DNA of 64,000 nucleotides from a virus (taxonomy: Duplodnaviria; Caudoviricetes), in the IMG/VR virus record IMGVR_UViG_3300009671_000010, positions 1 to 64,000 of that record; one strand, written 5' to 3'. Under the pieces are notes generated by a model, which searched no databases, was not told the origin of the DNA, and saw only the letters and a list, made by a program, of their open reading frames with translations. Below, piece by piece: positions 24,460 through 48,000 of the stretch. The translations under genes were made by a program, and so were the position numbers. Positions within the stretch are counted from its first letter, which is position 1, and every line of letters starts with the position of its first letter.

Positions 24460-25182
24460 ATGGCATTTGATAGCATAGAGGGAGCAGTAAGTGGATTACA
24501 AAGATCCTATAATGCATCTTCTGGTTGTGATATCGTTGCTACGTTGGATGGGATTGTGATAGCTAATTTAAATGGTATATCATATTCTACAACTAGAGAA
24601 AAGGCTCCGATATATGTCATGGGTTCTACTGATGCTGTATCATTTGGACGTGGAAAAAGGGGACATGCTGGCTCATTAGTTTTTACTAATTTTGATAGAC
24701 ATGCTCTTTATGATTTCATGGAAGGAACATATGGTGGTGGAACAAGTGATAAAAAACGATATTATTACTGGGCAAAAAAGACAGACATTCCAGCTGGAGG
24801 ACGTAGTAATCTAATAGGTACTACATTCAATGATCTTAGTGCTTTAGGTGTTGAACGTAAAAAGCCAAACTATTCTGATCAGTTACCTCCATTTACAATT
24901 ACTCTTACTTCTTTAAATGAATATGGTAATGTATCTGTAATGCATATTCTTGGTGTTGAACTTATAAATGAAGGATCTGGTGTATCTATAGATGACATAG
25001 TTACTGAAACTCAGATGACTTTCACAGCTCGTGGTATAATTGGTTGGAGACCTTTAATGGAAGCAGCTAATATAACAGGTGATTCATATAATATTACCAA
25101 CACTGATATATTAGATAGAATTAATCAATTAACAGCTGTTCAGCAAGCTGAATTATTTGGTAATATATCTAATAACACTTAA
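24460..25182 (+). CDS. tail tube protein
   Basis: Follows sheath, AAGGAGG RBS; SGCDIVA, ISYSTTREKAPIY, GKRGHAGSLVF, DQLPPFTI, GVELINEG...SIDD. Confidence 0.85.
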   Translation: MAFDSIEGAVSGLQRSYNASSGCDIVATLDGIVIANLNGISYSTTREKAPIYVMGSTDAVSFGRGKRGHAGSLVFTNFDRHALYDFMEGTYGGGTSDKKRYYYWAKKTDIPAGGRSNLIGTTFNDLSALGVERKKPNYSDQLPPFTITLTSLNEYGNVSVMHILGVELINEGSGVSIDDIVTETQMTFTARGIIGWRPLMEAANITGDSYNITNTDILDRINQLTAVQQAELFGNISNNT

Positions 25183-25221: not shown

Positions 25222-26178
25222 ATGATTAATACAAATATAACAGATATACTTGGAACTTCACTTAATAACTTAGATGGAATAATTACTGGTTTAGATAAAA
25301 ATACTGGTGATAATGATCCACTTAGGGATTCTTTTGTCAAATCTAATTCTTCATTTAGTGGAAGTGATTGTACTGTTATAGCTCAAATTAATCAGACTTT
25401 AATTTCTCTTGGAAATGTAGAAACATTTTCCTATTCTATATTTAGAGAAAAATCTCCTGTACGTACACTTGGAAGATCTAATGCTAAAGGATATACATCT
25501 GGAGGTAGAACTATAAGTGGAAGCATAGTATTTATAGTATTCGATAGACATCCTCTATATGATATTATTAAAGCTATGAAATATAATCCTAGAAAACTAG
25601 ATACCAGGTCAACCAATCCAGTTGCAGATCAGATATCTCCAATTGATTTATTTCTTGTCTTTCGTAATGAATATGGACATGAATCATTATTAAAGTTATA
25701 TGGTGTTGAGTTTTTACAAGAAGGTCAAACTCATTCTATTAATGATTTATATTCTGAAAATGTAATTCAATATGTTGCAAAAGATATGGATGTCATGATA
25801 AATTCTAAAGATAATGATGAATTCCATGATCTTGTTTTTCAGAGAAGATTAGCAGGACAATTTGTCGATAATTACTTATCATCTCTGCTGACATTTAAAC
25901 AAAATATATTATATCAGATAACAATGGCTAATAAGAATATTATGGAAAGTGAATTACTTAAACAAAAAGATCCTACACAATCTAGAGCTCTTGATACTGA
26001 TATTCGTTATTATAATATGAAATTAACTAAACTAAATAATGATTTGAATTCTATTAATAAACAAATAACTGTTTATGAATCTAATCTAAATGGTTGGAAT
26101 GCTCAACATGATGACAGTATGACATTATATGATAATCTTCGTCAATCATCAGTAACTACACCTTCATATAAAGGATAA
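25222..26178 (+). CDS. tail tube paralogue (tube initiator-like) with C-terminal coiled coil
   Basis: FSGSDCTV, FSYSIFREKSPV, GGRTISGSIVF, DQISPID, GVEFLQEGQTHSIND align by eye with the tube protein. Confidence 0.8.
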   Translation: MINTNITDILGTSLNNLDGIITGLDKNTGDNDPLRDSFVKSNSSFSGSDCTVIAQINQTLISLGNVETFSYSIFREKSPVRTLGRSNAKGYTSGGRTISGSIVFIVFDRHPLYDIIKAMKYNPRKLDTRSTNPVADQISPIDLFLVFRNEYGHESLLKLYGVEFLQEGQTHSINDLYSENVIQYVAKDMDVMINSKDNDEFHDLVFQRRLAGQFVDNYLSSLLTFKQNILYQITMANKNIMESELLKQKDPTQSRALDTDIRYYNMKLTKLNNDLNSINKQITVYESNLNGWNAQHDDSMTLYDNLRQSSVTTPSYKG

Positions 26179-32200: not shown

Positions 32201-35200
32201 TGGCGCAAAATATTTATCAGGAACAGTATTTAAAATAGCAGCTGCTACTACCGCTTATAGAATTGCAGATACAGCTATTGCGGCAAATCCTTTATTCGAT
32301 AATTCTTCATTTGATGATGGTATTACTGGTATGACGGCTGATCAACTTGCTAAAGCCCGATTATTCAGTGCAAAAGTTGGCGATACAATCGGATTAACTG
32401 GTGCAATGAAATATCTCGAGGGTTTGATGCCTGGATCAACATCAACTATTCCTGGTTTAATAGCTGGTGCTGCTATGGGAACTTTTACTAAGACTAGTCC
32501 ATTCGGAATGATTAAGGCTATGGCTGCAGGAGCTTTAATAAATAGGGTGGCAGATCCATATATTCCAGACTTTAGTAAAGATTATCAACAAGTAAGAAGA
32601 GAATATTCTGGTGAAGAAAAAGTTCCAATGATGAAATCTCCTACTTGGTTACTCGGTTCTACTCCATGGGAAGGTAGTAAAGTAGCAGGATATAGACCTA
32701 ACTGGTATGTTAGAGCCAAATCTAGGTGGGAAGCCTCTGATACGATGTATGGAAGTGAATTTAGAGCACTTATACATAAACCAATATTTCCACTTGGATT
32801 TAATATCGGTGATATAATTGATCCTTACTACATGGAACGCCGCCACTACTTCGATCGTCCCTATCCAAAGTGTCTTTTTGGAAGTGCTAAAGTAGTTACT
32901 GTTAATGGTATTAAGAAAATTAAGGATATCGATATTGGTGATTATGTATATGATATAAACGGTTCTGTTACAAAAGTTATCAATGTACTTAAACGTAAGG
33001 TAAATTATAATGATACAATTTTTTCTATGAGGGTTATTGGTCAGGAAGAAGATTTGATACTTACTTCTGATCATAAAATTCCTATTATAAGGGATAAAAA
33101 ATGTATTTTTAAATCACAACATAATAAGAGTTGCACAGGTAATGATAAAGGAATTTGTAGATATTGTACTAAAAAACGTAAAGATTTTGATATTAGTTGG
33201 GTAGAAGCTAAGGATATAAATATTGGTGATTTTTTGGTGAAAAAACCAATAAATCCTGAATATTTAGGATCCACTATAGATATTTCATTATATGTACAAA
33301 GACCATTTGATATTAAAGAAAATAAAATTTTCATTAAAGATAAACTAGGTAGATATACTGGAGATAGTTTTAATAGATACTGGGATATTGATAACGATTT
33401 AGCTTATTATTTTGGTTTATATTTATCAGAAGGATGGCTTGGTAAACAAAGGGGAAAATATATATCTGTTAATACCGTTCATAATAAAAAAGAATTTGAT
33501 CATATTAATAGAATAATTAATAATATATCAAAAAAATATAATTTAAAGTTTTCATATAAAGATTTTGGAACACATGTAAACTTTTATATATTTGATTATA
33601 TTTTTTCTGATATAATATATGGTTTATTTAATTGTGGTTCTGCTACTAAGAGTGTAAAATTTTTTACTAAAGAATTAGATAGAAAAATATTAGCTGGTTT
33701 ATTTTATGGAGATGGTCATTATGATAAAACACATGTTGTTTTAACCAGTATTAATATGAATTTGATTAATTTCGCAACCATAGTTCTAGAAAATGATTTT
33801 ATTTCTACATGTTTGAAGAAACACTGTGATAATGGTCATCAGTCGTACAGGTTATCATTTTCATATTCATACTTAGATGATTATAGATTGTTATTCGATA
33901 TTAATCATAAAAATGAGAACATATTAACTTCTAATAAGAAGTTACATTTAATTTATTTTAGGAATGGTTATCTTCTTAAAAGAATTATTAAAAAAGAGGA
34001 GATAGAGTATAATGATTTTCTATATGACCTTACTGTAGAATCACCAACACATAGTTTTTCTCTTTATGAATTTATTGTCCATAATTCAGGTAGATTATTT
34101 TCCGAGGTTCCTATTATAGGTGATCTTTTAACTCCTATTGGTAGAATTTTAAAACCCGAGAAAACAATGCATCAGGAGTTCTTACAAGGAGAATGGGCTG
34201 GAACAACTGATGGTGATAATCCTTCTATGGCTTCTTTACCACCTCCAACATATCAACAAAATATGTTTATGATGAACCAGGGAAGTGGTGCTAGAAGTCT
34301 TGGAAGAATTACTGCAAATGGTGGCAATTATACAACTGGGGGAATAACTCCTTGGTCTAAAGTTATTCAAGGTAAAGTTTTCGGAGATGTAACTGAAGCA
34401 ATGGGTTTACCTGGATTTTTAGCAAGAACAACTGCAGAAAAAGTATTTGGTGAACCAGAAGTAATTCCTACACTTGAATCAGCTGGAAGAATGGCTTCTA
34501 TGACAAGATCTTTTTATGATAAGAATCTTGGTGGTATGGGATCACTATGTTTACCAGCTTATGAAAAGATTTTAACACCAAGTGGTTTTATTATGTCTGA
34601 AGATATTAATATAGGTGACATAGTCTATGATAATTTTTATACTGAGCAAAAAGTTGTTAACAAATTTTCGAGATTATGTAGTGAAAATGAAAATTTATAC
34701 ACAATTACTATGGGAGCTGGTAAGACTACGATTTCTATGACTGATGAACATCCTGTTGCCATATATAAAAGAATTTCATGTAATGATAATAAAAAAAGAC
34801 CATGTATACCAAATTACTCAAAAAAATGTTTGACTTGTTCTAAACGTAATAGTCCTATTCATTGGAATTGGACAGCAGCAAAAAATATAAGTGTGGGTGA
34901 TTTTGGTGTTGTTCCTTTACCAAAAATTAAATCATTTAACTATATAGATTTAGCTAAGTATAGTGGTTATGTGTACACTGATAAATATATATATTTTCGT
35001 GCAACTTTAGAATACGCCAAAGGACTTGAGTTACTTGAAAATAATATTTGTAAAACAAGAAAAGATTTAAGAAATTATATATCTGATAACATAGCTAAAG
35101 AAGTTATCAGATGCTATCGATACCATAATTTTTCTAGAGTACGTATCCCTAGATTTATTAGTATTGATGAAGATTTTTGTTATTTTATGGGATGGTGGTT

Positions 35201-37994
35201 AGCTGAAGGTTCATCTGATATTAAAACTGGAAATATATGTTTTACATTAAATATTAATGAAATAAATATTGCACAAAAACTTGGAGAAATTTATAAAAGA
35301 TTTTCAAATTGTTCATATAATATTAAAATTATTAAAGAAAAAAATACTTGTATTTTATCACTTAAAAATAAAGCACTTTCATTATACTTAAAAACCTATG
35401 GTAATGTATATACAAAACAACTAAATGATTTAATTTATTTACCAGATAAATTAGCTATTTCATTATTAGATGGTTTGATAAATGGTGATGGGTGGATCAA
35501 TTATGATTTACAAAGAGGTGGATTTACATCTGTGTCTGAACGACTTGTTAGAGATATATGGTTATTATTATATAGATTAGGTGTACAATCTACTATTATT
35601 TTAAATTATAAAGAGCATCCAAATGGTTATTATCCTCAAGGAACACTAAGACACATAACTACGCGATCTTGTCTTAAATTTAATAAGGATGGTTTTATTA
35701 ATTTATCGAAATGTTTTTCCACTGGAGTTTCGAATGGAGTTATATCAAATGGAAGAGTTTTTACAACAACAGAATATCTGTTTATACAGATAACTGATAT
35801 AAATTTTGTTAATTATTCTGGAAAACCTGTATATGACATAGAAGTTGAAAACTCACATTGTTTTATTGGTAATTATATATTATTACATAATTCTGAACCA
35901 ATAAGAAGACTTTTATCTAAAGAAGAATATAATGAATATCAGGTTAATCCAATACCTAATATGATGCCAAACTTTCTACCTAGTCAATTTCTTACAGGAG
36001 ATCCTTATTCTTCCATTCAAAATGGAGAATTAAGATTACCAGGTAAAGCGTATATGCTAACTAATCCAGATTTAAAACAGAGTATGCCAGGTAGAGCAAG
36101 TAGTTTAGGTGCACCATTGGAAAATATAGTTCAATATTTTACTGGTTTATTACCCCCTAATTTAAAAGAAGAATATGATATATTAGAAACTGGTACATTA
36201 TGGCATAGTAAAATACAGGATACTTTAGCTGCAGAAGGATTGCTTATTAAAGCAGAGGCACTGGTATATGATGTTAAAAATGACATATCAGGACACGTGG
36301 ATGCTATTATTAGAGATGGACAAGGTGGTAAAGGAAGAAGAGCGTTAGAAATAAAAACTATCAGCAATAAAGGATTTGAAAAGCTTGATGCTCCGAAGGA
36401 TCAACATATAGGACAACTTAATTTCTATTTACATCAACTTAGATTTAATAATGGAACTATTTTATATATTAATAGAGATAACCCATCTCAAGTTAAAACA
36501 TTCGAGTTAACTTATAATAAAAACAGATGGGAAAGGGATGTTCAAAAACTACAGCGGGCAAGACAGATAGCTAGAGATATGATGAAAGATGATGTCAGTG
36601 ATACTTTAGGTTATTCCTATTCGTGGCTTGATAGATTAAATATCTTATCTGATGTTGCTCCGATGTCTAATGAATTTAAAGAAGCCAAACAGATTGTTAT
36701 GGCTCAAATTAAGGCTGGTCAATTTACACAAAAAGATATCGATAAATATCATAGAATATTAAAACAACAAAAAGCAAGAGCTAGATCATATGAATTATAT
36801 CCATTAAGATTTAAAGGTAAAGTAATGTCTCCTGACAGTGAGTCTAATATACAATCCATTAATGAGAACATAAAAGCATCTTCAGAATATACTTTACCAG
36901 AAAGATTAATTGGAAGTGCATGGGAAACATTCACAAATTCCAGTAACCCCGCAGTTAATAAATTTTGGGCATTTAAGGATCCACTTGAACATTATAAAGA
37001 AAAGAAATTATATGGTCGTGAGTATACACCGTGGGATGAACCGTATAGAAGCTGGATTGACCCATATATTAGAACTTCTCTTAGTAAAACAAGTACTGTA
37101 GGTGGCGGAGTTTCATGGGGAACTACTGGTTATGTATTTGGAGGTGAGTTTGGAGCTTTTGCTGGAAGTATATTAGGAGCAATGTATGGTACTGTAAATG
37201 GGCTATTTAGATCTGCTTCTAATAGTGCTTATATTCCATCAGAGGTAAAAAATCAAAGAAGAATAAATGAATATTTTGATAAGCTTAAATATGAACGTTC
37301 TAATATGATGTCATCTTTAACTATGGGTAACGTTCGTAATGAATTTTTAGCTCAAAGATCTGCTACTATGTATGCATTTAATAATGAGTCTGATCCATCT
37401 GTTGGTAATTTATTTAGAGCAGCAAGTCCATCAGAAAAACCATATCTACAATCATGGATAAATACAACTGATTCTGGTGAAAGAAATGAAATTTTAAAAC
37501 TTGTTCCAAATGATTTAGGGAGTGCACTTAAGAAGGTATGGGGTAAAAATGATGGTAAAACATTTACTAGAAACAGAATTGATAATATAAGTTCTGATAT
37601 GTCTGGAAATCAACAGAATTTTAATTTTGATGCATCTTTGATGGACCCAAGAATTAACGTGGATGATATAAAATTAAAAGCAATAGAGGATTATGGATAT
37701 AATTGTCATGATTTTGGTTTAGGCTGGAATGAACAAATGTTGAGAATAAAAGAATCAGAACTCAACATACCAAAATCTAATTTAAATGATGATATACCAT
37801 ATACTCCAAATTTATCATCAACGCAAATACGAGGTCAGATATATGAATTACTTCATCAGAGTGGTATTAAATGTAACGTAAATGTCTATATTAATAATAT
37901 GGATGGTCCCAATGTTGTTAATTTAACAGTAAGAAGAGATAGATCACTTGTAGCAATTAATGCATTAAGAAATAGAAGAAAGTATGGAGTTTAA
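29286..37994 (+). CDS. giant tape-measure-position virion protein with two inteins and a PD-(D/E)xK nuclease domain (2049 aa after splicing)
   Basis: Follows chaperones; multiple Gly/Ala-rich hydrophobic segments; two canonical inteins; GTLWH...GHVDAII...LEIKT...QLNFY nuclease motifs. Confidence 0.8.
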   Translation: MAYYNPFQDNKSYYNPYEQAKATPSVISTVSDVAKNMIVFGGLFALGTAATKFASGKIGSIVKSGNFGRATEIAKGLEKPTIGSILRNSSVGKNYTAFKESTGLYKAAQERSSLLSNIAKTDPSKYNLTKITSAFKNPTTFAATLGGVWKRNVITGLGVSFAIDKLSGYYNEMNPEKKAWYDIPGKVGQVGKWFVNNSVYSTAFGLLGPAAKGVASIGMAGARKAFGGSFGKYIEKSLSQVSPTLQHVNGESNLFRDKVIANAVSRHEQTFATKAIKWGQNFSTSVSENFRNLNSSVRAVTTGGAVDAFRKQGSFLSKAKSAFDPIKKALGQIREINARAETIRSERLVDTRTSYSGIRGLQFLQALATDAAQNTTIEKHSLDAQIMSVRESMKSKQTFLEKLLPTAKRVKNKDITSKEWLRDQIKDLRKRYDNKSVGKFVREFMNMDVGDNVFKINNRIVNLDNYSPFGMIRNISAPLLNKKFNDPLTNFKFTLGDITMLNTFITPKPKLDFFIDKNLKQLAEKQSLNIHGITERPVFSTNRELQKQGLNSIDDIMRNSQSTVALYTKGGKWSFFGQNEPMSISTGKDLNYSSRSSRFRYNETRDITIKSLLHKGVSKKEISSLLGGVYSGNNKFVKFMDKMGFQLPTAMDGMLGSLNDLIAGRNREYLTAVKNIFTPGSVTNIQSSLNVLDDIRSHTSQVMSDILGNPEVVDIIQKHGRFGNFKDDLKDILFSEKKLIEKFSEDDLIADGWKYSSDIRRNLETIKAYPSVARQHEQVKTLGGLGSMTSFDKLKVAYVDHITGNNFLNYVSKGNGYKHDLIDAVPDLLNAGLITEKQAGIVKLHAKLSSLQNYSKEQLKTSLQTTDFTGSHLWDEMISNEKKFGLDLEKDLIQFINNNKLRRTNINKYEQRILQRFNDNRPVNNNTPYYSMGRGIEGIGQYLGTSMDRLTEIMGEITPFKKDPVNHFGLLGGAKYLSGTVFKIAAATTAYRIADTAIAANPLFDNSSFDDGITGMTADQLAKARLFSAKVGDTIGLTGAMKYLEGLMPGSTSTIPGLIAGAAMGTFTKTSPFGMIKAMAAGALINRVADPYIPDFSKDYQQVRREYSGEEKVPMMKSPTWLLGSTPWEGSKVAGYRPNWYVRAKSRWEASDTMYGSEFRALIHKPIFPLGFNIGDIIDPYYMERRHYFDRPYPKCLFGSAKVVTVNGIKKIKDIDIGDYVYDINGSVTKVINVLKRKVNYNDTIFSMRVIGQEEDLILTSDHKIPIIRDKKCIFKSQHNKSCTGNDKGICRYCTKKRKDFDISWVEAKDINIGDFLVKKPINPEYLGSTIDISLYVQRPFDIKENKIFIKDKLGRYTGDSFNRYWDIDNDLAYYFGLYLSEGWLGKQRGKYISVNTVHNKKEFDHINRIINNISKKYNLKFSYKDFGTHVNFYIFDYIFSDIIYGLFNCGSATKSVKFFTKELDRKILAGLFYGDGHYDKTHVVLTSINMNLINFATIVLENDFISTCLKKHCDNGHQSYRLSFSYSYLDDYRLLFDINHKNENILTSNKKLHLIYFRNGYLLKRIIKKEEIEYNDFLYDLTVESPTHSFSLYEFIVHNSGRLFSEVPIIGDLLTPIGRILKPEKTMHQEFLQGEWAGTTDGDNPSMASLPPPTYQQNMFMMNQGSGARSLGRITANGGNYTTGGITPWSKVIQGKVFGDVTEAMGLPGFLARTTAEKVFGEPEVIPTLESAGRMASMTRSFYDKNLGGMGSLCLPAYEKILTPSGFIMSEDINIGDIVYDNFYTEQKVVNKFSRLCSENENLYTITMGAGKTTISMTDEHPVAIYKRISCNDNKKRPCIPNYSKKCLTCSKRNSPIHWNWTAAKNISVGDFGVVPLPKIKSFNYIDLAKYSGYVYTDKYIYFRATLEYAKGLELLENNICKTRKDLRNYISDNIAKEVIRCYRYHNFSRVRIPRFISIDEDFCYFMGWWLAEGSSDIKTGNICFTLNINEINIAQKLGEIYKRFSNCSYNIKIIKEKNTCILSLKNKALSLYLKTYGNVYTKQLNDLIYLPDKLAISLLDGLINGDGWINYDLQRGGFTSVSERLVRDIWLLLYRLGVQSTIILNYKEHPNGYYPQGTLRHITTRSCLKFNKDGFINLSKCFSTGVSNGVISNGRVFTTTEYLFIQITDINFVNYSGKPVYDIEVENSHCFIGNYILLHNSEPIRRLLSKEEYNEYQVNPIPNMMPNFLPSQFLTGDPYSSIQNGELRLPGKAYMLTNPDLKQSMPGRASSLGAPLENIVQYFTGLLPPNLKEEYDILETGTLWHSKIQDTLAAEGLLIKAEALVYDVKNDISGHVDAIIRDGQGGKGRRALEIKTISNKGFEKLDAPKDQHIGQLNFYLHQLRFNNGTILYINRDNPSQVKTFELTYNKNRWERDVQKLQRARQIARDMMKDDVSDTLGYSYSWLDRLNILSDVAPMSNEFKEAKQIVMAQIKAGQFTQKDIDKYHRILKQQKARARSYELYPLRFKGKVMSPDSESNIQSINENIKASSEYTLPERLIGSAWETFTNSSNPAVNKFWAFKDPLEHYKEKKLYGREYTPWDEPYRSWIDPYIRTSLSKTSTVGGGVSWGTTGYVFGGEFGAFAGSILGAMYGTVNGLFRSASNSAYIPSEVKNQRRINEYFDKLKYERSNMMSSLTMGNVRNEFLAQRSATMYAFNNESDPSVGNLFRAASPSEKPYLQSWINTTDSGERNEILKLVPNDLGSALKKVWGKNDGKTFTRNRIDNISSDMSGNQQNFNFDASLMDPRINVDDIKLKAIEDYGYNCHDFGLGWNEQMLRIKESELNIPKSNLNDDIPYTPNLSSTQIRGQIYELLHQSGIKCNVNVYINNMDGPNVVNLTVRRDRSLVAINALRNRRKYGV
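32871..34085 (+). mobile_element. intein with LAGLIDADG endonuclease (405 aa)
   Basis: RPYPK|CLFGSAKV, block B LTSDH, YFGLYLSEGW and LAGLFYGDG, ends LYDLTVE...FIVHN, +1 Ser. Confidence 0.93.
34548..35891 (+). mobile_element. intein with LAGLIDADG endonuclease (448 aa)
   Basis: GMGSL|CLPAYEKI, block B MTDEHP, FMGWWLAEGS and LDGLINGDG, ends VYDIEVE...ILLHN, +1 Ser. Confidence 0.93.
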
Positions 37995-40900
37995 ATTGGC
38001 TTTATTCAAAAATGATGATAAAAAAGAAAAAGATAAATTCTGGTTTGTTAAAGTTGCTACTAATGCAGCTATTGCTGGTGGAGCTTTTTATGGATTTAAA
38101 AAGGTAAAAGGACCAGCTGGATCAATCATTAAAAAAATTACAGATACAAATATAAATACAACTGTTGAAAAAGAAGCAGCTAAATACATTAAAACTTCAG
38201 AAGAATTTTCTAATGGTTACAATCCTTTTGATGAAGATGATTTAATTAATCCAAATATTCCAGATCAAATGATGACAATGACTGAATCTCTTATAAGTTC
38301 TAGTGAGGATAGTCTTATATCTGAAATAAATACTCTCAGTAATACTGATAAAGAATTTGGTGAAAAGTTTTCTATTTTCTACTCTAGATTTAATAGTCTT
38401 GAAAAATATGCAATTTCATATGGTCTTGATGGTGAAGATGCACATATAATTTTAGCACTTAGATCTGTTGTTCAAAAAGCACTTGCAAATGGCGTAGTTG
38501 ATGATAGTATTATTTCTAAGGTTAATTCATTACATGAAAAGTATTTAAAGCAAAACGCTTATGGTGTTTTATATCAAAGCCAATTACATCATCTTAAAAA
38601 TAATGCCAGGAAAGTTGTATTTGATAATATGTCATCGAAAGATGTATTAAAAAAATCAATTCTTGGTGATGTTACAACTGACTTAAGTTCTAAAGTAGAA
38701 TCACATCTTCTTGCTGATTTATTTAAAAGGAATAAATCTATCGAGGAATTTGTTCCTGGACAGATTAACAGTGCTCTTACACATGAGCTTGGTTCAACTA
38801 TATCTTCTTTCAAAAAAACAGTTGACTATAATCCACTACTTACAAGGATAGATGACAAACTTAGTTTAATCGAAGCAAAACCAAATTCCAGTATTACTTC
38901 ACATGCTATTCAAATAGCTAGAGATACAAATGGAAAACAGTGGGCTCATATAAATATAACTTTAAATAGCGGGAAGACACACACATTGGAAGTTCCACTT
39001 GCAAAAAATATGATTGTTCCAGGTTCAAATTCAACTGTAAGTTCATATGTTGATATGTTATTCACATTTGGTGGATCTCCAGCAAGTCCATATCAAAATG
39101 TGAAAAGTGCATTAAATTCAAGTGAATATATATTACATACAATATCAAAAAGACTTGATACTAATTCTTCTTTTATGAGTGAGTTTATTAGTGATACTAG
39201 TAATGCTATTCATAGATTAAATAATGAAATTAATGGAATACTTGATAACCTTACAATATATCAAGGTAAACCTGGTCAGTTGATATTACAATTATATAAT
39301 CCAGAATATGATAAACTTTTACATCAAAATGGTGAAGCTGGTCAAAGACAATATGACAAAATGAATCGTGCATTAAATAATATGTCTATGATGAATAGAA
39401 TGGTTCAATATAAAAAAGAAATAAAAAGTGGTAGAATTGGACGTGTATTTATAGTATCATTGGATACAGAAACGATAATGGCATCACAAACACATATACC
39501 TGGTTTAGAACACACTGCTAGAAATCCACAAACTCACTTAGTACAAATTGGTATTGACATAGCAGAGGTTAACAATTCTATGACTCCTAAAGTAGTGGAA
39601 TCTAAAAGATTTTATAGTGATCATGCTACTAATGCTTTGAAAAAAGATAATCTTTTTGATACAAAACAAATGGAATTCATACGTAAGGTTACACCTGGAG
39701 TTGATGCAAGTACAAGTATTGATGAAGTTATAAGCAAATATACTGAACATATTAAATTAAAAACTGATCAAACTGGAACGCGTGCTGCTAATGATACACA
39801 ATTTGCAGACAGTCTTTTAGATTATCTTGATCAATTCTTTGAACACAGTAAAACTGGTAAACTTGGTATTAATGATAAAGTTGTTATAGTTACAAAAAAT
39901 GGTCAACAATATGATTTACCATTGATTAAATTACATGCTACTAAAATGAAATGGAATAAATTTGAACGTAAATATAAAAATATGATTGATACTGGTTCTC
40001 TTGGGGTAATAGAATCAAAATATAATTTCGATGATAGTCCCCTTGGATTGGATTCCGTTATGAAAGGTATTCTTAATAGAACAGGTTTTGGAGATCCGAA
40101 TGTCGATTTTAATAATCCTAAAGTCATAGGAAGTGTATTAGATCATTTTGAAAGAAAAGGTTATCTTACAATTGATAATAATGTTAAAAAACAATTACAG
40201 GGTGCACTAACTCAAACGCATGGTGAAGCAGTAGTGGATGCATTATTTAACATAGTCATATATCAGGATATGTTTCTAAAGGCATCTACTAAAAGAGGGA
40301 TTTGGGATACATCTACACAATTAAAATTAAGAAAAGTAAATGATATGTTTCATGGATCTGCTTCTATTTATGAAAATGTTTTAACTAGAATGGAAAATGA
40401 CTCAGCTTATTTTAATGGGAAATTATTTACTGGATTTTTATCATCTGCTAATAGAGCTACAAAGGGTGCCTTGTATGAAGAATCAGCTGGAGCATTGTAT
40501 GCTTTTGGAGGTGGGTCTAACTTATCTAAACAGATATATCAAAATTTATCTGGACATACATTATCACGAAATATAAACATATCACCAAAAAAAGGTAGAA
40601 ACATTTTTAGAAAAACACTAACTACATTACCCGCTGTTGAATTACATCTAAAAAGAGAAAAAGCAAATAAACAAGCTGGTCTATATAGAGGTAAAGGAGT
40701 AACTCATAACAGTATAACTGTTAAATCAGCTCAAGTTATTTACTCTGCTGCAGAAACTGAAGGTTTGGCAATTTTATCTACTGACATAGCTAAGCAGGTT
40801 AATGTATTACATGATATGAATGTAAATATTAGTTCTATTAATTTTAGCGGAAATAGTACAGATGTAGGACCTCGTATTGATAAGTTTAAAAATATATTAT

Positions 40901-43900
40901 TAGATGCAATGTTAAATGAAAAGAGTAGTAAGCCAGGAAGTATAATTGATATTAATAGATTAGCAAAAAGAATTGCTTCGAGACCCGATATTAATCTTGC
41001 TAGACTACCGCGAGGTACTACTATTGGATCAGGTGATCTTGGACAGATTATATTGAAACATACAGCTAATATTGAGGATTTTGAAATTACACCAATAGAT
41101 GTTAATGGTAGAATTGATTTGGATATACGTGTAAAAATATCAAGAAAGGCTAGGGTTGATGGAAGTGAAGCATGGAAGGCTCGTGATATAAGTGGAAATA
41201 AATCTGTTCTTACATACTCTGATCCAAGTCAAAAAATAAATGGATTATATGGACATGATTTTAGAACTGAAGCAAAATGGATAAAAGATGGTAATGTTTC
41301 AGCTTTTAAAGATTCAGCTGTAAATAAAATTATAGGCACATTACAAGAACAAATTTATTCTGGTGATAGAAAACAATCTATACAAGCTAAATGGCAATTA
41401 AGAAAATTTGCAAGGGAAATTGGCGCTGACATAGTTAAAGATGAATTAATACTTAATCCTTATAAAATGAAAAAAACTAAGTATAAGCATTTGGGTAAAA
41501 AGGAAGAACAGCTTGCACACGCTATTTATGGGGCTCTAGACATCAGTTTAGATACAATCAATAGGTATATGAAGCCTGTTGGCAGTACGTGGTCTAGTGA
41601 GCGTTTAAAGGAGTTTTATGCTAATTTTGGAGGCGGGGATTATAATAAAGGTAGAAGTATTGCTAAAAGATTAGCTGATTCAATGTATGATAAAGCTGTT
41701 TCTAAATTAAAAAATGCAAGTCAGGAAGCATTATATTCAGTTAGTAAAGGTGATGTTTTAAAGGTAGAAGAAGAATATAGAAGAATAGCTGATTCTATAT
41801 ATCAACCAAAAGAAGGCGATACAATTTTTGCTGAATGGGCTAACTCTGATCCTAATGTCAAAAGTTCACATAAATCACTTATATTCTCCTCATTCAGTGA
41901 AATAAGTTTACATTCAGGTAGTATCACTGGAGAAGGTTTCGGATATCATACATTAAAAATGAGTAATAATGTAGTAGATCATATTCTTAGGTCAGATTAT
42001 ATTTCAAAAACTACTAAGGATATGGTTTCCAGTAATAGAGTCTATTATAGAGATGATATAAAGGCGAAAGCTAAAAAATCATTGGATAAATTTAAAAGAG
42101 AAGTATTTGCTGAAGCTTCTATGGCAACACATCTTGATCTTAATGAAATTAATAAATTATTATCTAGACCTGGGACTGAAATGCTTTCTTCTAATAATTT
42201 GGCAAAAAGTATTGATGAAGAGTTGAAAAAAAATATAGCTGGTTATAATATAGAAGCAGATGATATTCTTATTGATGTTAAAGATTCTATGATGACAACG
42301 ATTGAAAAATATAAAGATCATCTAGTTATGATTGATAATGAACTTGATGATCCAGAAAAATTTAGAGAGTATAAAGAAAAACTTGTTTCAAATATTATTT
42401 CACATCATAGAATGGAAACTGCTTTAAAAAAACAAAGTAAATTCGTTACCTATGAAGAAACAAGTGTATGGGCAAAAATGGCTAAAGAGCATAATAATAT
42501 TTTTAGGATTAGTAATAGTGTATCTGGTTTACCAGCAGTATTTGATATTGATATGAATAAAACCTTTAATTCTATTTATGGATCTACAAATTATTCTAAG
42601 CAACAGAAAAATTTATTTGTTAAAATGCTTAATGATATGTTAAAATATCAGCAAAAAAATAAAGTCGATGGACCAATTATATCTATTGATGGAGATAATG
42701 TTAAACTTAGAGAATTATTTATACCAGCACATGATGTAGCAGCAAACATAGCTGACAAAGTTGCTGGACCAATTGCTAGGGAAACTCCAGAAACATATAG
42801 TTCTAAAAGATTCTTACAATCAGTTGTATCTTATGCTAATGGTTTAACTATGCAGGGATGGACAGATGTTAATGCTAAAAGTTCCTATGAAACTATGATT
42901 AAGTTCTGGACTATGCATATTCTTGATACAACTATTGGTAATAAATCTGTATATGGTCAATGGCAGTCATCTAATTTAAAAGTTCAACAGTTTAAATCAA
43001 AAGGTGCTGAAAATTTATATATACAGGCACTTGAAATAAAAAATGCAGGAGGTATGAAAGCTATAGCCAAAGATAAAAATGTATCAGCTGATTATATACG
43101 TAGAGGTAATGAGATTCTTGAACAAATTTTAAATTCAAAATTTAATACTACATTCATATCAGAGACTGCATTTAAAAAAATGAAAGTTGACATAGGTGCG
43201 GGATTATCTACATCGTCAGAATCATATCTCAAGTCATTATCTACTAAGCAGGATAATCTATATAAAAGAATAGTTTCTGGTGAACAGAAAATGATTGGTT
43301 TTTCTACTCGTTATCCAAATGAACCACAGGGACAACACGCAATGATGGATACCATGATTCAGGTTATACCTGATGAATATAAAAAATATTTCCTAATGGA
43401 TGACTGGAGTGCATATACATATGATATATTTACTCAAATGATTAAGATGGACCATGATGGTGATGTTAATAACATCGGTTTAACCAATGTTAATACTATT
43501 GAAAAATTTAGGACTCACCGTAAAGAAATAAAGAATAAATCAAAATTATTATTTCAAAAAATTACTAATGTTATAGAAAAGCAAAAATATGATTATCATA
43601 CATGGATGAGACCTATAGGACTTGATGAAAATGGTGTTATGGATATACTTACATTTGATAAAGTAACCTATAGTCCCAGGGTTATAAAAAAAGAACTAAC
43701 TCAAGCATCTACTGATGAATTAGCTGAATTATTTGCTGGAGACAATATGTCAGCTTTTATTGCTGGATATGGTACTCAACTTCCTGAATTCATGACTGGT
43801 AGAGGATTAAATGCTATTAGGGTTCAAGCTGCATCGGCTGCTGCCACTAAAGATACTATGGGTATTGCAACCAATAGTGTAATGCGTGCAAACATAGCTA

Positions 43901-44919
43901 TGAAAGCTGGACTAGTTAAAGATCAGCATATTATTAATGATTTTTTTGGTGACATGAAAACTGGTTTAGGACGATTTTTACAAGATGTTACTGGTATTAC
44001 AAAAAATCCTACATTAGAAAAAATTATATCATTATCTAGGCAACTTGAAGTTTTACATGGAAAAACATCTGATCTTGAAGCAGTTGAACAATTTAAAGAT
44101 AGTTATATTAAAACATTTGAAAATGAGGCTAAATCTCTTGGTGATGAATATGATTTATTTCTTAATAAAAAAGGTTCTTTTTATGAGAATAAGAAAAATC
44201 AAATAGATACATATATCATGGTTAATAAAATTATTAATACGGCTAATAGAAATAGTGTTACGTTTAGAGATGCATATAAACAAGTTGTTCAATCTGAAAT
44301 GAATTCACCATCCAGAGGTTTGACTAGTATTTTTAATCAACCAGAAGATATTGGGCGTGATGATATATTTGCTGGAGTTCTAGAAAATGCAAGGCAAAAT
44401 CATTTTTATGAAACAAGTTCTATATTTGATGAGTTTTCTGAAAACTTTAAAAATAAAATAAAACTTAGTCATCCTATTATTAATAATAGTAAAAAATTTG
44501 CTAAATATGGTGCTATTGGTGCATCGGTGTTCTTAGCTGCTAATTTCTTTAGGTCAAATCAATTAAGTTCATCAGCCAATCCTTTAGATATGTTTGTTGA
44601 CTTAGATAATAATATAAATTCTGACAATAATATTTTTTCTTCTGATTTACAACTTGATAGAGGATCTTCACTTGAAATGGTAGATGCGTCATTCTCTAAA
44701 AAAGCTTTTGTTAGAATGAATAAAATACAACAAGGTAAAATGAATCAATATAAGTCAAAACAAATTAATAGTATTTTAGGCAGTATGTCTGAAAATTACT
44801 CAAATACAGGCTTTAATGTTTCAAATAGAGATATAGTAACCAATGCGAACTATACTAGTCATATTGGTAAATTCGGTAATAATAATATAGTAAGAAAGAG
44901 AAAATATGGTGGTTATTAA
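37984..44919 (+). CDS. putative single-chain two-barrel virion RNA polymerase fused to DEDDh 3'-5' exonuclease
   Basis: Exonuclease motifs SLDTET, KNGQQYDLPLI, IDT, HGEAVVD (aa ~490-755); polymerase motifs TEGLAILS (~926), KARDISGNKSV (K1065/K1073), RYP (R1776), MDHDGD (D1823-D1827). Confidence 0.75.
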   Translation: MEFKLALFKNDDKKEKDKFWFVKVATNAAIAGGAFYGFKKVKGPAGSIIKKITDTNINTTVEKEAAKYIKTSEEFSNGYNPFDEDDLINPNIPDQMMTMTESLISSSEDSLISEINTLSNTDKEFGEKFSIFYSRFNSLEKYAISYGLDGEDAHIILALRSVVQKALANGVVDDSIISKVNSLHEKYLKQNAYGVLYQSQLHHLKNNARKVVFDNMSSKDVLKKSILGDVTTDLSSKVESHLLADLFKRNKSIEEFVPGQINSALTHELGSTISSFKKTVDYNPLLTRIDDKLSLIEAKPNSSITSHAIQIARDTNGKQWAHINITLNSGKTHTLEVPLAKNMIVPGSNSTVSSYVDMLFTFGGSPASPYQNVKSALNSSEYILHTISKRLDTNSSFMSEFISDTSNAIHRLNNEINGILDNLTIYQGKPGQLILQLYNPEYDKLLHQNGEAGQRQYDKMNRALNNMSMMNRMVQYKKEIKSGRIGRVFIVSLDTETIMASQTHIPGLEHTARNPQTHLVQIGIDIAEVNNSMTPKVVESKRFYSDHATNALKKDNLFDTKQMEFIRKVTPGVDASTSIDEVISKYTEHIKLKTDQTGTRAANDTQFADSLLDYLDQFFEHSKTGKLGINDKVVIVTKNGQQYDLPLIKLHATKMKWNKFERKYKNMIDTGSLGVIESKYNFDDSPLGLDSVMKGILNRTGFGDPNVDFNNPKVIGSVLDHFERKGYLTIDNNVKKQLQGALTQTHGEAVVDALFNIVIYQDMFLKASTKRGIWDTSTQLKLRKVNDMFHGSASIYENVLTRMENDSAYFNGKLFTGFLSSANRATKGALYEESAGALYAFGGGSNLSKQIYQNLSGHTLSRNINISPKKGRNIFRKTLTTLPAVELHLKREKANKQAGLYRGKGVTHNSITVKSAQVIYSAAETEGLAILSTDIAKQVNVLHDMNVNISSINFSGNSTDVGPRIDKFKNILLDAMLNEKSSKPGSIIDINRLAKRIASRPDINLARLPRGTTIGSGDLGQIILKHTANIEDFEITPIDVNGRIDLDIRVKISRKARVDGSEAWKARDISGNKSVLTYSDPSQKINGLYGHDFRTEAKWIKDGNVSAFKDSAVNKIIGTLQEQIYSGDRKQSIQAKWQLRKFAREIGADIVKDELILNPYKMKKTKYKHLGKKEEQLAHAIYGALDISLDTINRYMKPVGSTWSSERLKEFYANFGGGDYNKGRSIAKRLADSMYDKAVSKLKNASQEALYSVSKGDVLKVEEEYRRIADSIYQPKEGDTIFAEWANSDPNVKSSHKSLIFSSFSEISLHSGSITGEGFGYHTLKMSNNVVDHILRSDYISKTTKDMVSSNRVYYRDDIKAKAKKSLDKFKREVFAEASMATHLDLNEINKLLSRPGTEMLSSNNLAKSIDEELKKNIAGYNIEADDILIDVKDSMMTTIEKYKDHLVMIDNELDDPEKFREYKEKLVSNIISHHRMETALKKQSKFVTYEETSVWAKMAKEHNNIFRISNSVSGLPAVFDIDMNKTFNSIYGSTNYSKQQKNLFVKMLNDMLKYQQKNKVDGPIISIDGDNVKLRELFIPAHDVAANIADKVAGPIARETPETYSSKRFLQSVVSYANGLTMQGWTDVNAKSSYETMIKFWTMHILDTTIGNKSVYGQWQSSNLKVQQFKSKGAENLYIQALEIKNAGGMKAIAKDKNVSADYIRRGNEILEQILNSKFNTTFISETAFKKMKVDIGAGLSTSSESYLKSLSTKQDNLYKRIVSGEQKMIGFSTRYPNEPQGQHAMMDTMIQVIPDEYKKYFLMDDWSAYTYDIFTQMIKMDHDGDVNNIGLTNVNTIEKFRTHRKEIKNKSKLLFQKITNVIEKQKYDYHTWMRPIGLDENGVMDILTFDKVTYSPRVIKKELTQASTDELAELFAGDNMSAFIAGYGTQLPEFMTGRGLNAIRVQAASAAATKDTMGIATNSVMRANIAMKAGLVKDQHIINDFFGDMKTGLGRFLQDVTGITKNPTLEKIISLSRQLEVLHGKTSDLEAVEQFKDSYIKTFENEAKSLGDEYDLFLNKKGSFYENKKNQIDTYIMVNKIINTANRNSVTFRDAYKQVVQSEMNSPSRGLTSIFNQPEDIGRDDIFAGVLENARQNHFYETSSIFDEFSENFKNKIKLSHPIINNSKKFAKYGAIGASVFLAANFFRSNQLSSSANPLDMFVDLDNNINSDNNIFSSDLQLDRGSSLEMVDASFSKKAFVRMNKIQQGKMNQYKSKQINSILGSMSENYSNTGFNVSNRDIVTNANYTSHIGKFGNNNIVRKRKYGGY

Positions 44920-45088
44920 TCTAACTATTGATCTACAGGATGGAATACAACCTGATAATATTATTTCATCTATTCAAGCAATCTTATCTCAAATTACAAA
45001 TAATCAAACTATGGTTAATGTTAATGAAGTAAATGATCCCATATCATTAAGTCCTATATCTTTTAATAAAATTGGAGATTCTGAATGA
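44906..45088 (+). CDS. small hypothetical protein
   Basis: 60 aa, fills the gap exactly, overlaps the upstream stop and is ATGA-coupled to the next gene. Confidence 0.6.
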   Translation: MVVINLTIDLQDGIQPDNIISSIQAILSQITNNQTMVNVNEVNDPISLSPISFNKIGDSE

Positions 45089-48000
45089 CTAGTAATCTGC
45101 TGTCTATCTGTACATATCTTAAATCTGTTTTTGTTTTAGAACATGATAAATATTATTCTTTTGATTATTCATCAAATATGTCTAAAACTGTATCAATTAA
45201 AAATATAATTAATGATGAATTAAATAAAATAGATGCCAAAATTAATTTTAATAAACAGATTAGATCAGTTGATTTTCAACTTGGAGACATAGTATATAAA
45301 GATTCTATTAATGAATTATATATTATACTTGGTGTTGATGGTGATAAAGTATTTACTTTTCCAGACAGTAAAAATGCAAAATGGATTAATACATCTACTA
45401 AGTCATATACAGTTATAAGACCTGATTACAGTTCTGTTAAAATGGATAATATAAATACTAGAATTAATGATAATATTACTAAAGATATAACTAATAAACT
45501 TAAATCTAATGAAGGTACGTTTATAACTAATTATAATCAGTTACCTGATTCATCATTACAAATTGGAGACATAGTTGTTGCTGTCGATCCAATACAAATA
45601 TCTTTTAGTACTCAGAATGGATATCAATATTATCCTACAGTTAGAACTAATGGTAATCCTATTCTTCCATCCCCGCAGCAAATTAAGAATATATCAGTAG
45701 TTCTTATATTTCCAAATGAAGATTCTATTAATAATCAGCTATTGAATATATATGCAATGTACAGAAGAACCCCTTTTGTTAATATTCGTAATAAACATAT
45801 ATGTGATTTTTTTAAAGATATTAAATCTGAAAAATCAGATTATATACCTGTAGCATTAGAAAGTATAAATATTGAATCTGTATCTGGATTTCCAAATACA
45901 TTACAGGCAACTCTTACTTTACTTCCATTTGATCCTAGGGTTATATCAAACGGATTATTAGCATTAAGATCATTATCTGATGTACAAAATCAAACTATTG
46001 ATAATGATTATCTTTTAAAAGAATATAATAAAGCTATTGAAAGAATGGATAGTAGTTTATATAATTCAAATACTTTCAAAAATGAAGATATTATAACTAA
46101 ACCTGTCAGATATTCTGATGATTTTAGAGAAAGTCTTCCATTTAGAGCATTCTATCAATCAATGATATCTGAAAAAAAATATGTAGAAGATGAATATGGA
46201 AATGTTGTTCCAATTAAAGATATATCTGGTATCGAAATAGCAGATGGATATGATATAAGTGCATATAGACCAACTAATAGTTATAATATGTTACATAGAT
46301 ATACTTCAATTGATAATATTAAACCTATTTCTTTCAAATATTCATATCTTAAAGATGATTATAGATCACTTATAAAAGATATATCCAAAAATAGAGTTAT
46401 AAATCAAGAAGAACTTGTTAATAAATTAAAGGATACTCTTATTCAATTAAATTCTAAAGATACAATGATAAGTTCTATATTTACAAGTTGTTTGTCTTTT
46501 AAGGATTATGTTGCTGAAACTGAATTTACATGGAATAAAGTTGATAATGCACTTAGAAATCTTTTTATTGAAAGTGGAATAGATGTACCTAATCAGAGAG
46601 TAAATTACAATCTTTCTGAAAAAGATATTGGAAATAATGTTACTTCTTTATTTAAGTTTCTTATAGAAAATATAATGAGGAGTGGTTCGAATGCAGTTGG
46701 ATATAATGCACTAAAAAATATACGATCTATAGTTGATGGAAGAAACATAGTAGTAGATGATTATATTGGTTTACTTAATCAATTATATGTTCAAACAGAT
46801 AATGAATTTAACTCTGGAACCAAACTTGTAGGTCTACCAACTTTAATAGATAATATATGGAAATGGTTAAATATAAATGATAATAATAAAATTGCATTTG
46901 CACAATTTTTAAAGAATTGGACTGAAGCACTTGCTAATGATCTTAATACTGGAATAATGACTACTGATATATCATCTCCATCATCTGATATTCAAGGAAA
47001 AAAAATATATAGATTACCTATAGAAAATGATACTATATCTATTGATTCTAAAAATAATATTATTCAGAACTGGAACATAGTGTTTAGCAATAAATTTGTA
47101 CCTATCAATATACAATCTTTTAAATATCCATTTTATCAACACCTTGGTAGTGAAAATGCATCAATTAATCTAAACATAGTTTCTGTTAATAATTCTGATT
47201 TTATTTCAAAAATTTCACAGTTATCTGATAGATTATTAGATTCTTCAAAAGTTTTATCAATGTGTTGTCCTGAATTATTAACATGGCTTGACTCTAGAAT
47301 AACAGTCGAATCTGATACAAATAATATATTTAATGTATTTGGATTTAATAAAGTATCTTATAATTCTTCTAATATTACAAATATACAGGGTCAGCCTGGA
47401 TGTTGGAACATTGTATTGAATTTAACACAATCAAATATAAGTGTAGCTGATTATACAAACATACAACAAGAAAATGATAATTATGCTTATATAGAAGAAC
47501 TTGCTAAATTTATATGTAGGTTACAGATTGAAAATGATAATATAATTGTAGTTGATTATTATAATGAAGATAATACTCTTATAACTGATTTAGAAGATAT
47601 GATAAAATGTTCTTTTATGTTTTCTAAGTATATGGTTATGCTTAATGATGAAACTGGATATTTATCCACTGTAAAAGATAATAGTGTTACTTTGGGTAAA
47701 AAAAAGCTTTTAGCTGATCTTAAAAAGAATGGTGTATATAGTATCATTAATGGTTCTTTAAGTAGTGTACTTAATAACTTTTTTTCTAAAAATGATATAT
47801 TCTATAAAGAATTAAAGACAGTTTTATTTAATGTTGATAAATTACATAAAAAAGAATATCTATTATTTAATAATTTATTAGCAGACAAAAAAAAAATATT
47901 TGAAAGTAATAATGTTAAATTTACCGATGTTTTGTTTGCAGTAATTGGTCCAAATAGATTATTTACTATTTCCAGTATTGTTAATAAAAGTGTTGGTACT

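Follow-up and report, generated by a model that had tools for sequence, protein, structure and literature searches.

A giant tail-module protein of an uncultured contractile-tailed phage that probably joins a DEDDh exonuclease to a virion-carried single-chain two-barrel RNA polymerase

Results

A 2311-residue open reading frame in a phage tail module

The window analysed here comprises the first 64 kb of the 111,472-bp IMG/VR virus record IMGVR_UViG_3300009671_000010 (completeness ~48%, CheckV); its G+C content is ~30% and its + strand holds all the large genes. We explored an open reading frame (ORF) of 2311 amino acids (aa) in the tail module of this phage (P0001), which an earlier note, made from the sequence alone, had proposed to be a highly diverged single-chain RNA polymerase (RNAP) carried in the virion. 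The ORF and the motifs behind that proposal were located by script where the note had placed them: TEGLAILS at aa 925, WKARDISGNKSV beginning at aa 1064 (K1065 at nucleotide (nt) 41176, K1073 at nt 41200), RYP at aa 1776 (nt 43309) and MDHDGD at aa 1822 (DHDGD at nt 43450-43464), the positions of R1776 and D1823 bearing out the 47-aa spacing that it had given. When the pattern R.P.{25,70}D.D[GASN]D was searched in the 286 six-frame ORFs of at least 60 aa in the whole 111-kb record, it occurred in this ORF only. The predicted order of parts, from the N terminus, is a hydrophobic helix, a helical/beta region, a DEDDh exonuclease (~485-785), a polymerase (~887-2067) and a C-terminal module, as follows (evidence in brackets).

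37984..44919, + strand: whole ORF, 2311 aa, predicted exonuclease-RNA polymerase giant protein (open frame)
38038..38097, + strand: N-terminal hydrophobic helix, aa 19-38, then conserved K-x-K-G-P (consensus; model helix at low predicted local distance difference test, pLDDT)
38281..39423, + strand: N-terminal helical region and beta-rich domain, aa ~100-480 (model: helices 101-248, strands 262-378)
39436..40338, + strand: predicted DEDDh (DnaQ-like) 3'-5' exonuclease domain, aa ~485-785 (conserved residues and model matches)
40642..41946, + strand: beta-subunit-like module with the second double-psi beta-barrel (DPBB-B), aa ~887-1321 (beta/Rpb2/Rpo132 alignments)
40756..40779, + strand: TEGLAILS motif with E926 and G927 (conservation; strand start in the model)
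41176..41211, + strand: basic loop WKARDISGNKSV with conserved R1067 and K1073 and non-conserved K1065 (column inspection)
42097..44184, + strand: beta'-subunit-like module, aa ~1372-2067, with clamp-like connector, DPBB-A and subsequent long helix (structural alignments)
42979..43485, + strand: predicted catalytic double-psi beta-barrel (DPBB-A), aa ~1666-1834 (alignments of isolated DPBB domains)
43309..43317, + strand: R1776-Y-P1778 (RxP) (conservation)
43450..43464, + strand: D1823-H-D1825-G-D1827, predicted Mg-binding triad (Asp conservation)
43798..43914, + strand: candidate bridge helix, 39 residues, aa ~1939-1977, with near-invariant T1963 (model helix 1060-1098)
44476..44916, + strand: C-terminal module, aa ~2165-2311, with a hydrophobic helix and the family's most sequence-conserved stretch (family consensus)

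The predicted fold is that of a two-barrel RNA polymerase

An AlphaFold2 model of aa 880-2079, built from a 24-sequence alignment, had a mean pLDDT of 74.7 and a predicted template-modelling score (pTM) of 0.72. When it was compared with the PDB using Foldseek, the top 50 matches were all RNAP largest or second-largest subunits (E 7e-4 to 5e-3, probability 0.66-1.0), and VIA-align applied to the Foldseek candidates ranked two non-virion RNAPs of Thermus phages first, P74-26 gp62 (Z 11.8) and gp64 (Z 11.6). An independent, exhaustive VIA-align search of 48,161 representative PDB chains returned five chains with Z of at least 8 after re-alignment (four by the header count on the whole model): QDE-1 (Z 11.8, 296 residues aligned, root-mean-square deviation (rmsd) 4.4), gp62 (11.2), P23-45 gp96 in two crystal forms (9.9) and maize RDR2 (8.3). 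All of these are single-chain two-barrel RNAPs, and each alignment covers both barrels. Matches at Z 6.2-7.8 comprised AR9, PhiKZ, vaccinia, African swine fever virus (ASFV), archaeal, plastid and eukaryotic RNAP subunits, together with PolD.

In the VIA-align superpositions, beta/Rpb2 chains fell on model residues 8-442 and beta'/Rpb1 chains on residues 492-1200, that is, on separate and consecutive halves of the model. The rigid alignments of QDE-1, gp62 and gp96 run across both halves, which implies that the model arranges its two barrels much like those of real polymerases and that the basic loop would lie next to the Asp triad. On the beta-like module, E. coli beta (residues 686-1243) aligned with Z 8.1 (rmsd 3.6 A, 196 residues) and vaccinia Rpo132 with Z 7.6, and the basic loop lies between model strands 185-189 and 194-200. 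The beta'-like module was matched by beta', Rpb1, A190 and ASFV RPB1 chains (E. coli beta': Z 7.9, 346 aligned), and DPBB-A within it by isolated DPBB domains, namely the designed msDPBB_sym2 (Z 6.6, 86/86 residues), VAT-N, CDC48-N and NSF-N. Around the triad the model runs through a strand ending in RYP, two further strands, a short helix, the DHDGD loop and a strand, an order that matches the beta' barrel. The candidate bridge helix, with the family consensus SK..IG..TN....R, was assigned by position only.

With both barrels present in the model, in the order beta then beta', the earlier proposal of a highly diverged single-chain two-barrel RNAP was upheld. The structure search that it had named as a check gave the same answer, every strong match being an RNA polymerase, and the catalytic motifs were among the best-conserved columns of distant homologues.

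A remote protein family conserves the residues of two predicted active sites

Sequence searches with the 2311-aa protein returned no match in Pfam (no domain of any kind) or in PHROGs, nothing by tblastn against 50,697 GenBank phage records and nothing by phmmer against PDB sequences; a 433-aa piece of it had no relative among the viral contigs searched. A word-indexed search of 5.8 billion proteins found a single homologue at 56% identity, with the single sequence and the family profile alike, and this homologue keeps all the RNAP motifs. An exhaustive HMMER search (query aa 950-2100; 1.84 billion cluster representatives) added breadth, with 23 metagenomic proteins, mostly of ~2250-2400 aa and 21-27% identical to the query protein.

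Conservation was read from a 20-sequence family alignment (A1; mean identity to the query ~20%), which contains 13 invariant columns and 41 more conserved at 90% or above. These columns form two functional sets, the DEDDh exonuclease residues and the RNAP-type positions E926, G927, K1073, G1772, P1778, D1823, D1825 and D1827. E926 is invariant and G927 conserved in at least 90%. P1778 is present in 19/19 sequences covering the column and R1776 in 17/19 (one further aligned sequence is a fragment ending earlier). K1073 is conserved in at least 90% (one Arg), R1067 occurs in ~14/20 and K1065 is variable by column inspection. The earlier note had taken K1065 and K1073 as a K-x7-K signature; this did not hold, the conserved basic pair being R1067/K1073, as in QDE-1 R738/K743. 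Thus, of the residues whose invariance it had asked homologues to confirm, K1073, R1776 and D1823/D1825/D1827 are conserved and K1065 is not.

Each of the three triad aspartates is conserved in at least 90% of the family, and the triad varies only at non-Asp positions (DFDGD, DHDGD, DSDGD, DVDAD, DNDAD and DNDSD), the family consensus being DFDGDQ, as in bacterial beta'. The DHDGD loop described earlier as unusual is indeed present, but its His is confined to the closest four members, the others having F, S, V or N; it is a subclade variant of the DFDGD consensus and not a family-wide trait. Against PDB sequences, the sole matches of the family profile were beta' chains at ADFDGDQ, with a non-significant E of 2.6-3.6, and hhalign of the family with E. 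coli rpoC aligned the right motif (E 0.019, probability 2.4%). The hhalign comparison with rpoB, which paired aa 1007-1022 with the GDKMAGRHGNKG loop (E 0.12), was rejected, these columns being poorly conserved and poorly modelled.

Eight residues are invariant in all two-barrel RNAPs, in QDE-1 D709, R738, K743, R962, P964 and D1007/1009/1011; in Rpb2 the basic pair is K979/K987 and the beta-side Asp is D837, and in Rpb1 the RxP motif is R446/P448 (PMC2919709). E926 is a candidate equivalent of the beta-side acidic residue (Rpb2 D837 / QDE-1 D709). If this equivalence is true, the aligned family would match the set at E926, R1067, K1073, R1776, P1778 and D1823/1825/1827, with seven residues of the same kind and one Asp-to-Glu change.

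A predicted N-terminal DEDDh exonuclease and conserved terminal modules

The earlier note, in proposing a polymerase, omitted an integral and invariant part of the protein, the exonuclease that precedes the polymerase. In the family alignment D494, E496, H746 and D752 are invariant, and D644 is conserved in at least 90%. A second model, of aa 1-900 (pLDDT 70.4), was aligned by VIA-align with the S. aureus DinG exonuclease domain (Z 13.0), ExoI (12.4), 3'hExo (12.1) and Pol III epsilon (Z 12.0, 170/174 residues aligned). In total 58 chains reached Z of at least 8 and, among the 50 matches listed, almost all were DEDD-type exonucleases; Foldseek matches included family-B polymerase exonuclease domains, RNase T and TREX1. 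Like the DnaQ/RNase T/TREX-type DEDDh enzymes, the domain has the five catalytic residues and their fold (Z 11-13 over ~170-190 residues). It differs from them in that the usual H-x4-D is one residue longer here (H746...D752), and in that those enzymes have ~180 residues, whereas this domain has ~300 with inserts and lies within a giant protein beside an RNAP.

Both ends of the protein are conserved as well. The N-terminal consensus is WF..T....G..FG.YKMKGPA, in which W20, K40, G43 and P44 are conserved in at least 90%, and the C-terminal consensus is AIGAA..LA.NFFRPNQ.SNS.NPLD...PLDMVNASFSKQAF...YSNYT. The hydrophobic N-terminal helix might serve in membrane insertion or packaging, and a docking or packaging role may be suggested for the C-terminal module; the two are candidates for anchoring in the ejection channel or for packaging.

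The 2311-aa gene is embedded in a block of three giant tail genes

Upstream of the giant genes lie, in order, the terminase large subunit (with an intein), portal, major capsid protein, tail sheath, three tube-like paralogues and two small ORFs. Three giant genes of 2902, 2311 and 2270 aa then follow in a row, succeeded by a gp25-like sheath initiator and baseplate J. The neighbouring features that bear on the 2311-aa gene are these.

21670-24411: tail sheath
29286..37994, + strand: upstream giant, 2902 aa, with a LAGLIDADG intein and a RecB/Cas4-like nuclease (Pfam and PHROG matches)
44906..45088, + strand: 60-aa ORF bridging the 2311-aa gene and the 2270-aa giant (start/stop overlaps)
45085..51897, + strand: downstream giant, 2270 aa, likely baseplate hub with a cell-wall hydrolase domain (phrog_20474, E 7e-31)

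The 2902-aa and 2311-aa ORFs overlap by 11 nt, the start of the latter lying over the stop of the former; the stop of the 2311-aa ORF overlaps the start of the 60-aa ORF, which in turn overlaps the 2270-aa gene. The 2311-aa gene is translationally coupled to giants on both sides. The 2902-aa giant is homologous in several segments to the virion proteins ORF145 of Bacillus phage 0305phi8-36 and gp096 of Bacillus phage WH1, and the 2270-aa giant to the 0305phi8-36 'baseplate hub protein' ORF147 and to WH1 gp094. The same three-giant block with its small ORF, in the same order of sheath, tube and baseplate genes, was found at the loci of two homologues, P0003 (on a 437-kb contig) and P0006, so that the placement is kept at ~22% identity. 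The small ORF between the RNAP giant and the hub giant was seen in 3/3 loci, with 60-63 aa: in the window, at L002 17137-17328 (63 aa) and at L003 16861-17043 (60 aa).

The 2902-aa giant and the 2311-aa protein both end in R-[RK]-K-Y-G (29286-29450 and 37900-37994 versus 37984-38100 and 44850-44919 for the terminal regions compared); the 2902-aa giant also starts with MAYYNPF, which fits the N-terminus MA..NPF of the 2311-aa family, and a Gly/Ala-rich hydrophobic segment follows soon after in both. These shared ends may be a common packaging or processing signal. By hhalign the 2311-aa family had no significant similarity to the 2902-aa giant (E 0.095).

Elsewhere in the 111-kb record there is no canonical RNAP Pfam domain and no paralogue of the 2311-aa protein. 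A split RNAP of the PhiKZ type was rejected on the absence of any RNAP Pfam domain from the record, and a crAss-like phage on the virion module, whose tail sheath, gp25 and baseplate J denote a contractile tail.

The middle giant seems exchangeable between related phages

Among cultured phages, sheath similarity places Bacillus phage 0305phi8-36, Moorella phage MTATph1 and Bacillus phages WH1 and Edson nearest. The corresponding block of 0305phi8-36 consists of ORF145 and ORF146, both annotated as virion proteins by mass spectrometry, and the baseplate hub ORF147. Since the flanking giants are homologous to ORF145 and ORF147, the 2311-aa gene is in the slot of ORF146, annotated 'hypothetical tape measure protein'. 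The earlier note had placed it between a tape-measure-position gene and the hub: the hub side stands, but the gene itself occupies the 'hypothetical tape measure' slot and does not follow a proven tape measure. Tape measure identity found no support in Pfam or PHROGs, where there was no match, or in the models, which are globular and multi-domain and not extended and helical; only the positional equivalence holds.

ORF146 of 0305phi8-36 has no DxDxD motif, and its hhalign comparison with the family gave a probability of 0.6%; ORF145 showed no homology to the family by hhalign, and neither the 0305phi8-36 nor the Moorella MTATph1 genome, both complete, gave a match to the family profile. In the cultured 230-kb phage WH1 (vB_BceM_WH1), the middle giant gp095 (L009 14593-22140, - strand), annotated 'virion structural protein', carries RYP-(37)-ADHDGD and aligns weakly with the family over the beta' barrel by hhalign (E 8e-4, probability 25%); a simple pattern search found no obvious DEDDh motifs in it. 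Because WH1 gp095 has the motif and ORF146, in the same slot, is without it, the middle giant seems exchangeable between related phages.

The best BFVD matches of the polymerase model were a 'minor tail protein' of an uncultured siphovirus, Siphoviridae sp. ctnpt50 (A0A8S5SD80, E 4.6e-7), an unnamed protein (A0A7R7G2L5, E 5e-7) and an uncharacterised protein of Acinetobacter jumbo phage vB_AbaM_ME3 (A0A172Q021, E 6e-5), with a weaker match in Microcystis phage MaMV-DC (A0A075BUT7). The top three outrank giant-virus RNAP subunits. From these model comparisons, cultured phages seem to have the fold in further unannotated giants of their tail modules, and tail giants may harbour two-barrel RNAPs far more often than annotations show.

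Comparison with known polymerases

A close parallel is gp96 of Thermus phage P23-45 (PDB 8H2M/8H2N), a virion two-barrel RNAP that is fused to the tape measure and transcribes pre-early genes (Chaban et al. 2024, PMC10770324). Like the 2311-aa protein, gp96 has a single-chain two-barrel core with a DxDGD triad, set in a giant protein that a tail-module gene encodes; the model aligned with it over both barrels (Z 9.9, 271-285 residues, rmsd 4.2-4.3 A), and the role proposed here, to enter with the tail contents and transcribe the first genes, is alike. In PDB sequence searches there was no similarity between the two. In gp96, from a siphovirus, the RNAP is N-terminal in a tape measure of 5002 aa that also contains membrane and metallopeptidase domains but no exonuclease, whereas in the 2311-aa protein, from a contractile-tailed jumbo phage, it occupies the C-terminal two-thirds behind a DEDDh exonuclease, in a gene separate from its neighbours. 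Moreover, gp96 is without a clamp, and in the 2311-aa protein the barrels are linked by a ~400-residue connector to which N-terminal regions of beta' align.

The best structural matches are Neurospora QDE-1, grouped here with eukaryotic RDRs (PDB 7Y7P, 7W84), and the Thermus phage non-virion enzymes gp62 and gp64 (8F5M, 8F72). QDE-1 resembles the 2311-aa protein in its R-to-D spacing (45 versus 47) and in its basic pair, R-x4-5-K here being like R738/K743. The ~140-residue insertion between the acidic residue and the basic loop gives a spacing like that of Rpb2 (D837-K979) and unlike that of QDE-1 (D709-R738). QDE-1, the RDRs, gp62 and gp64 measure 590-1400 aa, have no exonuclease and are either cellular or non-virion enzymes, and Pfam RdRP gave no match here.

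The gp66 of crAss-like phage phi14:2 (PDB 6VR4) and SPbeta YonO share with the 2311-aa protein the concept of a phage single-chain two-barrel RNAP, packaged and injected in the case of gp66 (bioRxiv 10.1101/2020.03.07.982082; PMC5467207), but gp66 belongs to a podovirus, YonO is a ~100-kDa non-virion enzyme, and both are without an exonuclease. Neither was among the structural or sequence matches listed for the 2311-aa protein, which may nonetheless be related to them. Jumbo phages of the PhiKZ/AR9 type also bring or make their own two-barrel RNAP, and the beta'-like chains of the AR9 and PhiKZ non-virion RNAPs aligned with the beta'-like half (Z 7.8 and 7.2); those enzymes, however, consist of 4-5 polypeptides and are detectable by RNAP Pfam models, in contrast to one chain without a Pfam signal here.

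By its modelled fold, the 2311-aa protein belongs to the two-barrel RNAP superfamily and is closest to the single-chain clade (QDE-1/RDRs and the P23-45 RNAPs), and no sequence test placed it in the gp96, gp66, YonO or PhiKZ families. A survey of jumbo phages reported DPBB RNAPs only for PhiKZ-like phages, together with YonO-like proteins of 0305phi8-36 and c-st (PMC7824862). The architecture described here is not in that survey, and in the literature searched no phage tail module was described as encoding a fusion of exonuclease and RNAP. A different lineage is the subject of the 'moraphage' paper (PMC12619734).

Discussion

The 2311-aa protein apparently combines, in one chain under strong purifying selection and within a tail/ejection gene block, an intact two-barrel polymerase site and an intact DEDDh exonuclease. 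The explanation that we consider quite likely is that it is an exonuclease plus single-chain two-barrel RNAP that is carried in the virion, ejected, and transcribes the first phage genes; by analogy with known virion enzymes, the phage thus probably carries its own transcription enzyme into the host. The virion-carried early role is the most likely one by analogy with P23-45 gp96, crAss-like gp66 and N4 vRNAP (virion RNAP), for all of which such a role has been shown.

In the mechanism that we propose, D1823/D1825/D1827 on the beta'-like barrel would bind the catalytic Mg ions, as predicted from the fold and the conserved residues, and the active site would be completed, as in QDE-1 and cellular RNAPs, by R1776/P1778 and, from the beta-like barrel, by R1067/K1073 and E926. 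The protein would be made late with the tail proteins, enter the virion with the two flanking giants and be ejected into the host with the DNA, making first-gene transcription independent of host RNAP. Packaging and ejection are suggested by the conserved gene order; the timing, and the synthesis of RNA rather than DNA, are likewise presumed. In the least certain step, the exonuclease would act on a nucleic-acid 3' end in the same complex, where it could trim backtracked or misincorporated RNA 3' ends or, as a second option, process the entering DNA end and so give the polymerase a template.

Several points weigh against this explanation. The fold rests on one predicted model from a shallow 24-sequence alignment, with Z scores of 8-12 that are moderate, and no comparison with any known RNAP reached sequence-level significance (Pfam, PHROGs, PDB phmmer, GenBank phages, hhalign with rpoC and rpoB). 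On the beta side the acidic residue is E926, a Glu where an Asp is canonical, and ~30% of members are without R1067, the first residue of the basic pair. DEDD exonucleases are typically fused to DNA polymerases and not to RNAPs, and a folded protein of ~260 kDa has no obvious fit in the lumen of a tail tube. Finally, as the record is ~48% complete, another RNAP may lie elsewhere in the genome.

An active two-barrel RNAP that is encoded in the late operon and works unpackaged in the infected cell, for example in late-gene transcription or in making primers or regulatory RNA, appears unlikely to us. Non-virion single-chain phage RNAPs do exist (P23-45 gp64, YonO), and gp64 and gp62 are the best or near-best structural matches (Z 11.2-11.8). 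However, the gene is coupled on both sides to giants with virion or baseplate homologues, a placement kept at ~22% identity, the conserved hydrophobic N- and C-terminal modules would be needless in a soluble enzyme, and a polymerase made only with late genes could serve early transcription only if carried by the virion.

The exonuclease brings a two-barrel DNA polymerase or repair enzyme into consideration, in which polymerase and DEDDh domain would form a proofreading pair like that of replicative DNA polymerases. Archaeal PolD has a two-barrel core able to make DNA. Proofreading DNA polymerases are characterised by fusion to a DEDD 3'-5' exonuclease, the matches of the exonuclease model include Pol III epsilon and the exonuclease domains of family-B polymerases, and PolD DP2 is among the structural matches of the polymerase model. 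Its Z of 6.2 is nonetheless far under those of QDE-1, gp62 and gp96 (9.9-11.8) and lower than those of many RNAP subunits, the long helix and later elements align with beta'/Rpb1 up to model residue ~1190, and DEDDh exonucleases act on RNA too (RNase T, 3'hExo, PARN and Pop2), so that we regard this alternative as very improbable. Least plausible of all is a structural tail protein, for tape measure or ejection, that retains an RNAP-derived fold without polymerase activity: it would suit the slot of the 'hypothetical tape measure protein' ORF146, itself without DxDxD, and an evidently exchangeable middle giant, but in a family otherwise ~20% identical conservation is highest at the catalytic residues of both enzymes, a pattern that marks selection on catalysis and not on length or shape, and the model is globular and not an extended coiled coil.

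Within the virion-carried RNAP explanation, a bolder version is possible but rather doubtful, namely that exonuclease and polymerase form one machine at the tip of the ejected tail contents, anchored by the terminal modules to a channel formed with the flanking giants, of which one has a RecB/Cas4-like nuclease. This machine would process the entering DNA end, start transcription on it and perhaps help to draw the jumbo genome into the cell. If so, contractile-tailed phages would have a virion transcription complex of a new class, one with a proofreading or end-processing function.

If the proposed virion RNAP is real, an entire group of uncultured jumbo and mega phages (contigs up to 437 kb) carries a cellular-type RNAP in the virion, hidden in a gene that all annotation pipelines leave blank or call a tail protein, and some cultured Bacillus, Acinetobacter and Microcystis phages probably belong to the group as well. 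This would explain how transcription starts in them without a recognisable RNAP or sigma factor, and would widen the strategy of an injected two-barrel RNAP from podoviruses (crAss-like) and one siphovirus (P23-45) to contractile-tailed phages. In the literature searched, the predicted protein is the first permanent fusion of an RNAP with a DEDDh 3'-5' exonuclease, a combination that bears on transcript proofreading and on the diversification of two-barrel polymerases. The labels 'tape measure' and 'minor tail protein' on giant tail-module genes merit re-examination.

Other observations at the locus

In the 2902-aa giant, the LAGLIDADG homing-endonuclease intein spans aa ~1774-2202 and the RecB/Cas4-like PD-(D/E)xK region aa ~2290-2430 (phrog_1706, E 2e-16); a weak lysyl-oxidase-like match was seen at aa 1268-1327. 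The terminase large subunit (4817-7114) carries its intein (Intein_splicing/Hint, aa ~63-223) directly before the ATPase domain. The portal ORF (9647-12646, 999 aa) matches the portal profile only at aa 54-327, followed by a match to phrog_85, 'thymidylate synthase', at aa 327-415 (E 4e-9), a segment that may be another inserted element or reflect a mis-named profile. The three phrog_9206 paralogues lie at 24460-25182, 25222-26178 and 26181-28316, the third fused to an SLT lytic transglycosylase (lysozyme); phrog_9206 is labelled 'major head protein', and the equivalent genes of 0305phi8-36 are annotated as tail tube.

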